A DNA stretch of 64,000 nt from Syntrophorhabdaceae bacterium (GCA_963666485.2 CAXXUO010000001.1:864001-928000); one strand, 5' to 3'; counted from the first letter of the stretch, positions 9,399-21,300 are shown. Program-made: numbers and translations. The notes: a model not told the origin generated them from the sequence alone.

Positions 9399-12300
9399 AT
9401 GCATAAGAGAACAACCCTGCCGGTTATTGTCTTCCTTGGTCTTTTCTTTGTCCTTGCCTCCTTCGCCCACGGCGCCCTTGTCGGCAAGGTAAGCTCGACG
9501 GAGGGGCGGGCTGATGTCCTAAAGGTCGGGACGAAGGCGCTCACCCCTGTCAAGACGGGGACGACCGTCGATATCGGGGACATCTTTCGGGTCAAGAGCG
9601 ACGGGAAGGTGGAGATCACCTTCTTCGATGGCGGCATTATCCGGATAGGGCCCGCATCGAGGGTCGAGATCAAGGACTACTCCTCGGACAGCACAAAGAC
9701 GAACAACGTGATCCGGCTCGCGACGGGCCACGTCCAGGTCATCACGGGCAAGACCTTCATCCAGAAGGTGTCCCAGTTCACCGAGGGGAACAAGTTCGAG
9801 GTCCACACCCCGAACGCCACGGCAGGGGTGAGAGGCTCCAACATGGTCGTCTCCTTCATACGCTCCGTCACGACGACCCTCTTTATCGACGGCAAGGGGT
9901 ATCAGTATAACCCCGCAGACCCTTCAGGCACGCGGGTCACCATCGTGAAGGGCGAGATATCCTTCGTCCATGCACCGCTCGCACCGCCGACCCCCCCGAG
10001 GAAGGCATCCCCCATAGAGACGACCCAGATCGTGAAGACCGTCACCGTGACGCCGCCGGGACAGCCGGGCGGTACAGGTCCGGGTTCGGGAGGGACGACA
10101 CCGCCGTCCGGCACAGGGACGACGGGCGGGACGACCACCTCGTCCTCCGGGACAGGCACGACAACGACATCGGGGACGACGTCCGGCCCTGACGGTACAT
10201 CAGGGACGACGGGGACAGCAACGGGCACCTCGACCACGACGCAAGGCGGCTATACCACGGTCTCGGTCGGGTCCGCGGGCGGGGTCGGGATCACCACGCC
10301 CGAAAGCCCCTTCGCCGTGATGAGCACGCCGCTTGCCCAGACAACCTCCCCGACATCGACCACCATCGGGCAGAACACGATAGCCGGGGTCCAGGTAACG
10401 ACTTTACCCACGATACCCATCACGGAAGTGGCGCTCACCCCGCTTCTTGTCATCATAACCGGCGTGCCTGAGGTCACTGCCAGCACCTCGGCGACCTTCT
10501 CCGTCACAGCAAGCGAGGCGTCGACCTTCTCCTACAGCCTCGACGGGGGGTCCTCCTTCATCCCCTTCACGGGCTCGACGGTCACCGTAAGCGGGCTCGC
10601 CGAGGGGAACCGCACACTCATCGTCAGGGCGACGGACACGTACGGGCGCACGGCAACGGGCAGCGCCTCCTGGACGATAGACCTCACGAGCCCCGTCGTA
10701 TCCATCCTGACGAAACCCGCCTTGCTGACCAACTCTTCCGCGGCCGCATTCGGGTTCTCGGCGACGGATGCCACCGCCGTCACCTACCAGTACAGCATGG
10801 ACGGGGGCAGCACCTGGGCCTCTGCCGGTTCGAGCCTTTCTCTTGCCGGCCTTGCCGAGGGGGCCCACAGCTTGAGCGTCAGGGGCATCGACGCCGCGGG
10901 CAACGTCTCCGCCACGCAGACGTACAGCTGGACGACCGACTACACGGGGCCCGTTGCTGTCACCGTTGCCGGTGTCCCCACAGGGTCGACGAAGCTAAAC
11001 ACCGCCACCGTCACCCTTGCCGGCATGGACGCGGGCGCCTCCTATTCGTACAGCACGGACGGGGGGGCGACCTGGACGCCGACCGCCGGGACAATCACCC
11101 TTGCCGGCCTTCCCGAGGGGAAGCAGGACCTCACGGTGCGGGGGGTCGACGCGGCGGGGAACGTGACCGCACAGACATACTCCTGGATAACGGATTACAC
11201 GGCGCCTGTCATAGGCACGTTCACGAAGTCGTCCGCCCCCACCGCGGGCGCGACGGCCAACCTCACGGTAAATACAACGACGGGCGAGGCGACGGACACC
11301 GCGTACGCCATCGACGCGGGGGGCTACACGACCGTGACGGGGACCTCCTTCACCGCGAACGTCTCCGCCGGCAGCCACACCCTGTCCTTCAAGGCGATCG
11401 ACGCCGCGGGGAACGTGTCCCAGCCATCCGACATCATGTTCACGCTCAACCGGTACTCGCTCCTCGGCAACACCTACGGTACGGGCAGTGTCTTGAGCGG
11501 TTCCGCGACGGGGGATGTTGCCGAGATCCCCACCCAGCCATGGGGCAGCTGGCTCATCTCAATGACGGGAGCCTATACGGGCCCCTCGTCATCGTCCTGG
11601 CAGACCACCTCGGGCGGCACCATGACCGACCTCTCGTCCGCCAACACGGGCTACTGGCTCTCGCAGGGCACCGGCACCTACGCCGGCAACGTGATGACGG
11701 GCTCGTCCAGTTTCTCGTACATAACGGGAACGACCTTAGGCGGCGGCACAGGGATCATCACGGGTTCCCATGGCGCCACGACATACACCTTAAGTGACTC
11801 GGGGAGCAACCTGACGGCGAACCCGCTCACGGCGGTGAACGCGGTAAACACTACCCGCTATTCGCTCCAGAATACGGGAACACTCACGGCAGGGGCGGCG
11901 GTGGCGGCGGGGTCACAACCTCGTTCCGTTGCCGTCGATCCGACAGGGAAGTTCGCCTATGTGGCAAATCGACTTGCCAGCACCATCTCCGTCTATACGA
12001 TCAACCAGACAACCGGGGCGCTGACGGCAGGGACGGCAGTGGCGACGGGAGTACAACCGGATTCTGTTGCCGTTGACCCTACGGGAAGGTTCGCCTATGT
12101 GGCGAATATGAGTTCCTACACCGTCTCCGTCTATACGATCAACCAGACGACCGGGGCGCTGACGGCAGGGACGGCAGCGGCGACAGGGACCGACCCCAAT
12201 TCCGTTGCTGTCGACCCCACGGGGCGGTTCGCTTACGTGGCGAATTATGGCTCCAATACGGTCTCCGTCTATACGATCAACCAGACGACCGGGGCGCTGA

Positions 12301-18300: not shown

Positions 18301-21300
18301 CGACGGGGGCGCTCACGGCGCTCACAACGATCGCGGCGGGGACCACCCCCAGCGGCATCATCGTGGACCGCACGGGAAGGTTCACGTACGTGGCAAACCA
18401 GGGCTCCAACACCGTCTCCCTCTTTACGATCGATCCCGTGATCCAAACGGCGGACGGCAGCATCGCCGCCTACACGGGCACGACGGCATCTCTCTGGACA
18501 GCGACTTCAGGGACACCTGCAACGCTCACCGCCATCGGTACGCAGAGCGGGACAACAACCTCGGCCCGCCTCTTCACAACGAACGTGGCCAGCTACAACT
18601 ACACGGCGGGCAACACGACGACGTATGACGGCGGCGCCTATAAAGGTTACCTCACAGGCATCACGAGCGGCACCAACATGGCGGCAAAGATGGTCGCCCT
18701 CTACATAGACCCGTTGGGCAACGCGGGGTATTTAACGGGCAACCTCTCCGGGACGGCATATGCCGGCATATCGATGTTCTCCATGACGGGAGGTGCCTAT
18801 CCGACCCAGATGGCGACAGCCGCAGAAGTAGGCATAGCGCCGGTTGACCTTACCGGGAAAACATTTGAAGGCGTTGGGAATATTGTGACTGCAGGAACTA
18901 TTGGAACGGGGGGATGGTTCAGGGATACATACAGCGCAGGCAAATATTTCAAGACCCTGTCCATCGTGGACGGGACGAATGCCCAGCCCTGGGGTGTCTA
19001 TAGCCTCATGACCTATGGCACATTCATGACGCCCTCCTCGGGGTCGACGATGACAGCTGTCCTGGGAGGCGCAAGCACCCCATTCGGGAAGTATTCGAAC
19101 GGCGCGGGGATGCAGCCCGACACCGGGTACTGGCTTGCAGATCTCGGCTCAGGGACATGGTCGGGGAACACCATAACGGCGACCCTCGCCGGAACGTACA
19201 TATCGAAGACGCGCCTGGGTACTTTGAGCGGCAATCTCCTCGGAACCTATGATACGGCCTGGCAGACAGCTTCAGTTGGATCATGGCAGGGAACACCGCT
19301 TGCCGCGGTGAGCGATGTCAATGCCACGCGGTACAACCTTCAGACGACGGGATCTCTGACGGCGGGGGCGGCGGTAGCGGCGGTGAACGCTCCTTTCTCC
19401 GTTGCCGTCGACCCCACGGGCAAGTTCGCGTACGTGGCAAACTACGGTTCCAGCACGGTCTCCATGTACACGATCAACCAGACGACGGGTGCACTGACGG
19501 CAGGGACGGCGGTGGCGACGGGAACTAACCCGTTGGATATTACCGTCGATCCTACAGGGAGGTTTGCGTACGTGGCAAACAATACCTCCAACACGGTCTC
19601 CATGTACACGGTCAACCAGACGACGGGTGCACTCACGGCAGGGACGACGGTGGCGACGGGAACTAGCCCGCAGAGTGTTGCCGTCGATCCCACGGGGAGG
19701 TTCGCGTACGTGGCAAACTACGGTTCCAGCACGGTCTCCATGTACACGATCAACCAGACGACGGGTGCACTCACGGCAGGGACGACGGTGGCAACGGGAA
19801 ACGGTCCTTCAACCGTTGCCGTCGATCCCACGGGCAAGTTCGCGTATGTGACAAACCGGGAAGCCGACACCGTCTCCGTCTACACGATCAACCAGACGAC
19901 GGGTGCACTCACGGCAGGGACGACGGTGGCGACGGGTATCTACCCGTTGGGTATTACCGTCGATCCTACAGGGAGATTTGTGTACGTGACAAACAATAGC
20001 TCCAACACGGTCTCTATGTACACGATCAACCAGACGACGGGTGCACTCACGGCAGGGACGACGGTGGCGACGGGAGACATACCCCGTGCTGTTGCCGTCG
20101 ATCCTACAGGGAGGTTTGCGTACGTGACAAACGAGATGTCCAACACGGTCTCTATGTACACGATCAACCAGACGACGGGTGCACTCACGGCAGGGACGAC
20201 GGTGGCAACGGGAGACATGCCCTTTTTGGTCGCCGTCGATCCTACAGGGAGATTTGCATATGTGACGAACTATAGTTCCGCCACTGTATCCGTCTATTCC
20301 ATCGACGCCCAGACCCGCACCAGTGATGGTACCCTGACTGCCTACATCGGCAGCACTAGCTCCCTCTTTAGCGGGGGAACGACGCCCGTCACGATGATCG
20401 GCACGTACAGCCCGACAACACCCGCGTCTTTCATCTGGGGACAGGCAATGAACAGCTATAATTTCAGGACAAGCCTGAACACGACGTACGACTCGCCGGC
20501 CAACGCGTACGCAGGCTACCTCGCCGGCTACAAGGCAAACGACAACACCGCGAAGGCGAAGTGGGCGTCGATCTATGTGAAAGACGACGGCAGCGCGGGT
20601 CTTATCATCGGCTCCCTTTCGGGGAACGCCTATCCGGGCATATCGATGCTCAAGCTCGACGGTACCCTCAACGCCCCGGTCGAGATCGTGTCGAGCGCCA
20701 TAGGGTTTACGCCCGACAACCTCCTTTCCAATATCAACACCCGCTCCTACGTGAACGGCACGCCGCTTCTCAACACCGGAGCCTTCGGCGGCGGCGGGAC
20801 GCTTTTAACCTCCTACTACGAGAGGGAGAGGATGATGATCAACGGGCAGGGCTGGGGCGTCTTCAAGGCCGTGGGGTCCGGCACGTACGCGGGGACGACA
20901 TCAAATGACTGGTCCCTTTCCTTCGAACACTTCTATTCCCCCCTCAAATCCATCAACGGAACGGAGATGGCGGGGACAGTGTGGACGGGGAACAAGCTCG
21001 AGGGCACGCTTCGCGGGTACGTGGCCGACTGGTCGGGGACGGGCACAGCATGGGTCAACATAGGAGACGTCATCGGGACGTACGACCCGAATACTCTCAC
21101 CTTCCAGGTGACGGCAGCCGGCACCACCTTCCACGTCGACAAGTTCCTTGCGATGACGGTGACCGAGGCGACGAAGCTCCAGGCGCTCAACATACCCTGC
21201 GTACAGGTGGGGAACGTGAACCTCACGGGCTCCACGAACTATGGAGCGGGGACCGTGAACGTCGCGATGAACAATACGAGGTTCTTTGCCACGAACGCGG

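Follow-up and report, generated by a model that had tools for sequence, protein, structure and literature searches.

A giant gene with five beta-propellers in a Syntrophorhabdaceae bacterium: variable top-face codons, blade exchange and a barrel-chain chassis

The giant gene and its blade array

We analyzed a 64,000-nucleotide stretch of DNA from a Syntrophorhabdaceae bacterium (GCA_963666485.2, CAXXUO010000001.1:864001-928000), referred to here as the window and numbered from its first letter. It contains a giant gene (9393-21578, + strand) that is read as one uninterrupted frame of 4,061 residues and holds a complete array of beta-propeller blades. Only 4 bases separate its start from the end of a gene for a protein with tetratricopeptide repeats (TPRs) and an outer-membrane beta-barrel, which we call the TPR-barrel gene. 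The probable signal peptide of the giant protein has a basic start, a hydrophobic core and small terminal residues, and it lacks a lipobox cysteine. Behind it lie a FecR-like domain, on which the LipL45 and Lsa33 models score under their cut-offs, and the domains listed in Table 1.

The original prediction, made from the window alone, described 35 blades with a constant scaffold and two hypervariable patches and compared them to a variable-receptor repertoire. A motif scan confirmed the count. The blades form five groups of seven with a period of 46 residues, the groups lying ~345-350 residues apart, and blades 17 and 21 are each one residue shorter. Pfam calls these four-stranded blades Lactonase (PF10282) and NCBIfam calls them YVTN repeats (TIGR02276), so that the array comprises five seven-bladed propellers of the YVTN/lactonase type. 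The scaffold is less uniform than had been proposed. Two framework motifs described as almost unchanged are exact in only 19/35 and 10/35 blades, and mean blade identity is 71, 76, 53, 70 and 76% in propellers 1 to 5; because of the 53% value, propeller 3 does not have a constant scaffold.

Variation among the 35 blades exceeds chance and is concentrated where the two patches had been placed. Per-site entropies were highest at position 27 (3.41 bits), followed by 9 (3.25), 11 (2.99), 8 (2.58), 28 (2.41), 40 (2.38) and 12 (2.27), and the near-invariant Pro10, Gly19 and Tyr23 gave 0-0.19 bits. In the first patch, which recurs at a spacing of 138 bases, two variable codons flank Pro10. Every blade has its own combination of patches (35/35), drawn from 31 different first and 28 different second patches. 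Single patches do recur between blades, and one second patch occurs 6 times.

The best match among solved structures, by sequence (E 2.7e-41) and by fold, is the YVTN surface-layer protein 1L0Q, which also shows variable residues around the same proline. Gluconolactonases match as well, and matches in the ESM Atlas scored 0.82 or less. In the model of propeller 5 (predicted local distance difference test, pLDDT, ~80-96), codons 8-9 fall in the d-a loop, codons 10-12 at the start of strand a and codons 27-30 in the b-c turn. By established propeller topology, d-a loops and b-c turns build the top face, where ligands bind, as stated for HET-E (PMC1805685). The five most variable codons (8, 9, 11, 27 and 28) therefore lie on the top face in the predicted fold, in agreement with the face named originally. 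The equally exposed a-b loop is almost constant across blades. Position 40 is a third variable site (2.4 bits), overlooked in the original prediction; it lies in the c-d loop, on the opposite (bottom) face, and varies less in relatives (0.36 vs 0.63).

Blades resemble the other blades of their own propeller. The nearest neighbor lay within the same propeller for 38 of 49 blades (35 from this gene and 7 each from genomes G012 and G091), and 29 of the 31 exact tracts of at least 30 bases link blades of one propeller. Third-position identity is 0.64-0.79 within propellers and 0.36-0.58 between them, propeller 3 excepted. Amplification from one blade, the source of repeat identity described in PMC9218822, accounts for this clustering; the mosaics require later exchange. 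Blade 14 shares a 35-base tract over patch 1 with blade 13 and a 42-base tract over patch 2 with blade 12, and blades 29 and 31 share 72 bases spanning patch 2. A recombination test resembling the pairwise homoplasy index (PHI) was significant for propeller 5 (p 0.004) and propeller 2 (p 0.008), and for propeller 1 only when the patches were removed (0.026).

Propeller 5 had been described as near-identical outside the patches, synonymous sites included. DNA identity in its scaffold is 87%, and third-position identity is 76% overall, 69% in codons 13-26 and 83% in codons 31-46/1-6. Four-fold sites differ in 11/173 comparisons in codons 39-46/1-4, compared to 67/201 in codons 7-30. The description thus holds for ~40 of each 138 bases and fails elsewhere. 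The patches of this propeller are 33% identical in DNA and 10% in protein.

Table 1. Features of the giant gene and of the gene directly upstream (positions in the window)
Feature	Position	Strand	Basis or remark
TPR repeats and outer-membrane beta-barrel protein, 535 residues; Slam/type XI secretion-like candidate exporter	7781..9388	+	Pfam TPR, DUF2860, BBP2_2
Giant protein: signal peptide, FecR-like domain, linker, immunoglobulin (Ig)-like domains, barrel chain with five propellers, conserved C-terminal barrel region	9393..21578	+	
Probable cleavable signal peptide	9393..9476	+	read by eye from translation
FecR-like domain, residues 65-154	9585..9854	+	PF04773, E 1.4e-8, above cut-off
Gly/Thr/Pro-rich linker, limits approximate	10038..10442	+	translation
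Ig-like / OmpL47-type small beta domains, residues ~362-684	10476..11444	+	Big_13; NF047446 in three stretches
First small beta-barrel and first strand of next barrel	11469..11864	+	aligns to residues 1-121 of propeller-free relative
Propeller 1, 7 blades, in barrel hairpin	11865..12830	+	
Barrel module between propellers 1 and 2	12831..13727	+	modules 72-77% identical to one another in DNA
Propeller 2; blade 14 a mosaic of blades 13 and 12	13728..14693	+	
Barrel module between propellers 2 and 3	14694..15605	+	
Propeller 3, most diverged	15606..16568	+	53% blade identity; two one-residue deletions
Barrel module between propellers 3 and 4	16569..17465	+	
Propeller 4	17466..18431	+	
Barrel module between propellers 4 and 5	18432..19337	+	
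Propeller 5, most homogenized	19338..20303	+	model pLDDT ~80-96
Variable patch 1, example: codons 8-12 of blade 29, d-a loop and start of strand a	19386..19400	+	
Variable patch 2, example: codons 27-28 of blade 29, b-c turn	19443..19448	+	
Remainder of host barrel, another barrel, conserved C-terminal barrel domain (candidate export signal)	20304..21575	+	

The barrel-chain chassis and its candidate exporter

By alignment to a propeller-free relative (L134), all five propellers are inserted in the second barrel, at its first hairpin (residues 128-131), a feature overlooked in the original prediction. Propellers occupy the same hairpin in G012, G091 and P0003. Among 234 clean junctions retained from 297, in 111 proteins, 152 lack an insert, 62 have Tyr/Asp-rich inserts of 80-130 residues, 11 have inserts of 130-220 residues and 8 have longer ones, 7 of which are these propellers. 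The model of L134 (pLDDT 93) has four all-beta domains; three align to small barrels at Z <=7, and the last was barely tested. Alignment to HpuA gave Z 5.1 with a root-mean-square deviation of 3.7 and 80 aligned residues. The top Foldseek match of the L134 barrels was TbpB, with an E-value of 6e-5 but a template-modeling (TM) score of 0.12. A first fold run of 6 sequences returned barrels at pLDDT <50.

The C-terminal 419 residues match 442 representatives at E <= 0.001 and 26 of the 69 genomes of the family, which places the chassis in at least that many. No Pfam or NCBIfam family matches this barrel region. A FecR-like head is present in 71 of the 97 listed representatives of at least 800 residues, and a propeller in 1 of the 150 listed.

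Other members of the chassis family carry other parts. The 80-130-residue inserts (P0001-P0150, L133-L141) are rich in Tyr, Asp and Glu, belong to no identified family and occur in proteins of up to 4,969 residues. L132:2075-9280 (-) has a YVTN propeller plus a second repeat insert and another foreign domain elsewhere in its barrel chain; the second insert, which has no Pfam match, looks similar to Asp-box/BNR blades. In L016:4693-8097 (+), from the same genus, an alpha/beta-hydrolase-like head (weak LCAT match) replaces the FecR-like domain and is followed by one propeller and the same C-terminal region.

We compared the locus to type XI secretion (Slam/DUF560), in which a membrane protein with TPRs and a barrel likewise stands beside its cargo, as with TbpB, HpuA and NHBA (bioRxiv 10.1101/2024.09.26.615229). 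Type XI cargo has variable N-terminal parts and a C-terminal small barrel, and some cargo proteins repeat the barrel unit. A TPR-barrel gene adjoins the chassis gene upstream in 6 of the 8 host loci with upstream DNA. The TPR-barrel protein of the window had no PF04575 (DUF560) match in a profile search. A paralogue on contig C2, 43% identical, scored 23 bits against a cut-off of 22, and 16.8 on a part. The absence of a PF04575 match, the weak barrel matches, cargo of up to 5,000 residues, the FecR-like head and the inserted domains are points in which the locus, a candidate type XI system, differs from those described, and the words "FecR" and "propeller" do not occur in the main text of the preprint as available. 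A literature search found nothing relevant on a barrel chain with an insertion hairpin, most subscription papers lying outside its reach. If the chassis is type XI cargo, that system would be widened to proteins of up to 5,000 residues. At G000:C2:482616-489074, outside the window, three FecR-like genes (541, 397 and 542 codons) come after the paralogous TPR-barrel gene; their heads are near-identical, and their divergent tails end in a similar C-terminal motif.

Relatives of the array and similar systems

The variable patches are a trait of the blade family and are not special to this gene. A scan of GTDB found 382 related stretches, of which 79 loci were retained; the comparison left out own-genome and duplicate loci (8/97) and proteins without exactly 7 or 14 blades. 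The same six positions exceed the scaffold in divergence in 92/92 propellers from 74 other loci. Mean divergence at these positions and in the scaffold is 0.73 vs 0.31 in relatives and 0.78 vs 0.24 in this gene, and the variability profiles of the two correlate (Spearman 0.77). Blades of this type matched in 11/60 related genomes and in 1/19 within the genus. Neither the GTDB nor the metagenome scans contained a near-identical relative, and the closest other propeller was 65% identical among the matches listed.

Five distinct binding surfaces on one molecule had been proposed originally. The five faces are indeed mutually unrelated: patch identity among propellers is 3-23% at the same blade index and 8-24% off-index, and no patch is retained by blade index within the window or in comparison to G012. 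All five are putative binding surfaces. Among orthologous propellers elsewhere with scaffold identity of at least 90% (64 pairs, non-independent), patch identity is 76% between blades of the same index and 20% off-index, with the scaffold at 93%. Because patches persist by blade across species, the changes have occurred, as far as shown, on an evolutionary and not a within-culture time scale.

Two related loci were informative in other ways. L142:8099-9956 is a very young array of the same blade type in a fibronectin-repeat lipoprotein-like protein, which stands behind a TPR-barrel gene and a FecR-like gene. Its scaffold is near-identical at silent sites and its patch codons differ at two or three bases, which makes it a cleaner case than the window. 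Young relatives of this kind provide an unusually clean natural map of variable propeller positions that is useful for binder design. In L026:10891-12120 (+), a second propeller is split into several frames beside an intact one, and we liken it to the decay of young propellers noted in PMC9218822.

The closest parallel we found is with the HNWD receptors of Podospora anserina (HET-D, HET-E and HET-R; PMC1805685, PMC4986451), whose propeller repeats likewise undergo concerted evolution. They show positive selection on the top face, at a codon pair flanking a conserved one in the d-a loop and at codons of the b-c turn (PMC1805685). The giant protein resembles them down to this arrangement of two variable codons about a conserved one. 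HNWD proteins differ in that they have WD40 blades, are intracellular, carry a NACHT domain, exchange repeats among ten loci and exist as polymorphic alleles (PMC1805685, PMC4986451), whereas the giant protein is bacterial, has a signal peptide and YVTN/lactonase blades and is encoded at a single locus. No Pfam or NCBIfam match to NACHT or WD40 was found in it. Lacking both, it is ruled out as a NOD-like receptor (NLR) of the HNWD type.

Highly repetitive propellers (PMC9218822) are also closer in sequence within a propeller than between propellers, and lactonase-like families are listed among them. Four of the five propellers here exceed the 60% blade identity used to define that class, judged by means where the paper uses medians. 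Variable interaction hot spots have been described in highly repetitive bacterial WD40 proteins (PMC5587647). The portions of PMC9218822 and PMC5587647 available to us hold no site-level selection test on lactonase-like blades and explain blade identity by amplification; this gene differs in its mosaic tracts, which indicate that conversion continues, and in having its propellers plugged into a barrel chain. The surface-layer protein 1L0Q differs in having one propeller with PKD domains, and the gluconolactonases YbhE/Pgl differ in having differentiated blades and a fixed active site. A search that missed most subscription papers found no report of this selection pattern in lactonase/YVTN or secreted bacterial propellers. 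What is new is the family of blades, the probable extracellular setting and the barrel chassis into which domains plug; the evolutionary recipe is already known from WD40 immune sensors, and here reaches another blade family and proteins that bacteria probably export.

Selection on the patches and competing accounts

We examined selection with codon site models (our own implementation, on a fixed nucleotide tree). M8 was favored over M8a (likelihood-ratio statistic 55), with a nonsynonymous-to-synonymous rate ratio (omega) of 3.4-4.1 and sites 8, 9, 11, 27 and 28 identified. When the patches were made to share the synonymous rate of the scaffold, omega was 2.4-3.9. Values above 1 in this gene are overstated, because they depend on assuming one synonymous rate along the blade.

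Simulations matched, crudely, on scaffold silent divergence provided a second approach. Neutral runs reached the observed patch divergence in 0/674 cases for propeller 5, in at most 3/739 and 3/493 for propeller 4 and in at most 4/739 and 9/493 for propeller 1. For the whole array, the observed value was reached in 0/109 neutral runs, 4/26 runs with purged conversions, 36/111 runs with positive selection and 27/28 runs with both. Silent divergence within propellers, relative to that between propellers, drops away from the patches (rho -0.49, p 0.006, 30 non-independent sites), and there is no such fall between propellers. The silent contrast of 0.11 was reached only when overwriting conversions were purged (5/26 and 3/28, vs 0/109 and 0/111). 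Silent divergence that peaks near selected patches is a signature described in PMC2588116. We conclude that selection on the patch codons is needed in this gene and that neutrality falls short.

Young arrays gave a more direct view of the patches. From 27 arrays of ungapped blades (5 from the window), the 8 youngest were tested, uncorrected for multiple tests, and patch-only omega exceeded 1 at p <0.02 in 5/8 (two estimates at bound). In L142, divergence at four-fold sites is 4%, all 12 blades use one Pro10 codon, patch codons differ by 54% at positions 1-2 and by 23% at position 3, and shared-rate omega is ~18. Positive selection has acted on the patches of five of these young arrays, and we infer that it is also ongoing in the giant gene.

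We put at roughly 0.6 the probability that the giant protein is a multi-headed surface binder diversified by gene conversion and selection, as are the fungal HNWD receptors. A YVTN/lactonase-type propeller would have entered one barrel at its first hairpin before that barrel module was multiplied five times. The protein would leave the cytoplasm by the Sec route and then probably pass through the neighboring TPR-barrel protein in the outer membrane; its chain of small beta-barrels would display five binding propellers that are non-catalytic. With blades 138 bases apart, ordinary homologous gene conversion and local re-amplification would have kept blade frameworks similar within a propeller and occasionally carried a patch to another blade. 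Selection would favor new residues at codons 8, 9, 11, 27 and 28 and remove conversions that erase useful differences. Five different binding faces would result and would change on an evolutionary time scale, with no need for a cassette store or a dedicated diversifying enzyme. The blade anatomy, the place of the variable codons, homogenization with mosaics, non-neutrality, the insertion site and positive selection in young relatives are established by the data; the export route, surface display and binding are inferred. As for the ligands, a guess would be glycans or proteins on the surface of partner cells, competitors or phages.

Several results weigh against this account. A patch-only test that gave the patches their own synonymous rate was not significant in this gene (p 0.30-0.36), and patch silent sites are as diverged as replacement sites, both in propeller 5 (proportions of differing nonsynonymous and synonymous sites, pN 0.65 and pS 0.76) and within propellers generally (pS 0.56, pN 0.59). 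For this reason ongoing positive selection is not demonstrated in this gene; the patch codons are saturated, and positive selection is therefore inseparable here from selection against overwriting. The diversifying selection proposed originally thus stands as non-neutrality and in the shared-rate and site models, and does not stand in the patch-only test. The site models were also run on recombining repeats, on which such tests yield false positives. Only 1 of ~5,600 simulations fitted all summaries together, and propeller 2 fits neutrality, with 48-137 of 739 neutral runs reaching its observed value. Three of the 8 young arrays (L132, L050 and L146) gave no significant patch-only result, and one of them, L132 (p 0.25), is in the same chassis. 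In five clusters of orthologous propellers, patch omega was 0.64-1.66, with a best p of 0.02-0.07 in one cluster; these values are lowered because clusters had to share 40% of patch residues. The PHI-like test was not significant for propellers 3 and 4 or for all 35 blades; the homologous recombination proposed originally is visible in blade 14 and in propellers 2 and 5. Finally, the link to an exporter rests on synteny, a borderline profile match of a paralogue and weak fold matches.

The strongest competing account, which we regard as unlikely, is that the top-face residues diverged once and are now held by blade-specific purifying selection, with conversion only maintaining the framework, which would leave five fixed binding sites and no current arms race. 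It would explain the saturated silent sites in the patches, the peak of silent divergence near them (the signature of PMC2588116) and the persistence of patches by blade index across species in other hosts, and neutral patches with purged conversions reached the observed divergence in 4/26 matched runs. Against it, young arrays have replacement changes beside unchanged third positions and an unchanged Pro10 codon, and this gene, G012 and G091 retain no patch by blade index although the propellers sit at the equivalent site.

A bolder version of the conversion-and-selection account is doubtful, and we rate it lower again. It would make the chassis a plug-board, an undescribed Slam-like exported display family whose barrel chain takes up exchangeable binding domains at a single hairpin. 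In this lineage the five propellers would diverge by conversion and selection alone, fast enough to differ between strains of one population, and would serve outside the cell as an antibody-like equivalent of the fungal HNWD sensors that recognizes partners or enemies.

Relaxed constraint, in which the need to fold conserves the framework and the loops, tolerant of every residue, evolve by neutral drift, is improbable and already largely refuted. Exposed loops vary in any repeat protein, propeller 2 fits neutrality and orthologue patch omega is near 1 elsewhere. However, none of the 674 and none of the 109 matched neutral runs attained the observed divergence, the a-b loop, just as exposed, hardly varies, and omega exceeds 1 in young relatives.

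We consider it slightly less probable still that the propellers are 6-phosphogluconolactonase-like enzymes that adjust their substrate range through the variable residues. The Lactonase model of Pfam and the gluconolactonase model of NCBIfam score above cut-off on the whole protein, and enzymes of this type are among the fold matches, but each of those scores adds up 15-16 stretches. At a given blade index, no top-face residue is conserved across the five propellers, nor in relatives, and the closest match in sequence and fold is a non-enzymatic surface-layer protein.

There is very little room for programmed diversification, in which patches would be rewritten within a population from silent cassettes or by a diversity-generating retroelement. 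Retroelement targets often have codons ending in C, and many patch codons of young relatives do so. The giant gene is the only source of blades in its genome: protein and DNA profiles found no blade-like sequence outside it in 3.77 Mb, the next hits having E 0.25 or worse, and G093 also has no additional copy. Reverse transcriptase, reported absent from the window, also gave no RVT_1 match in this genome (G000, 99% complete), G012, G091 or G093. Adenine-specific change is absent too; all four third bases are used in the patches here, and silent adenines changed in 0/36 cases in L142. With no reverse transcriptase, template or silent cassette found, programmed diversification is refuted for this assembly, and the repertoire reading fails insofar as it implied an active generator or a cassette store.

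An inflated or scrambled assembly is the least credible account: contigs from short reads (three runs, one sample, depth ~3-19) break inside propellers 1, 2, 4 and 5, so that the letters are supported but blade order at the breaks is not, and one contig joint jumps from 11911 to 17667, its short side being only 21 letters long, but the contigs cover all 30 bins without substituted letters, the linkers and 35 distinct blades are unique, and the gene is one frame of 4,061 codons.

The remaining observations concern genes other than the array. G094, the genome of L028 and one of four other genomes, has six reverse-transcriptase matches (L226-L231), all on contigs other than the propeller's. In the window, genes upstream (966-7521, +) code for a tripartite ATP-independent periplasmic (TRAP) solute-binding protein, a CoA ligase and a three-subunit molybdopterin oxidoreductase, and a GAF histidine kinase gene lies downstream (21605-23146); nothing in the window annotation ties these genes to the giant gene. 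A type VI secretion accessory cluster occupies 27448-34637 (-) and consists of a VgrG-like gene with DUF2169/pentapeptide, a DUF3540 gene and pentapeptide genes.

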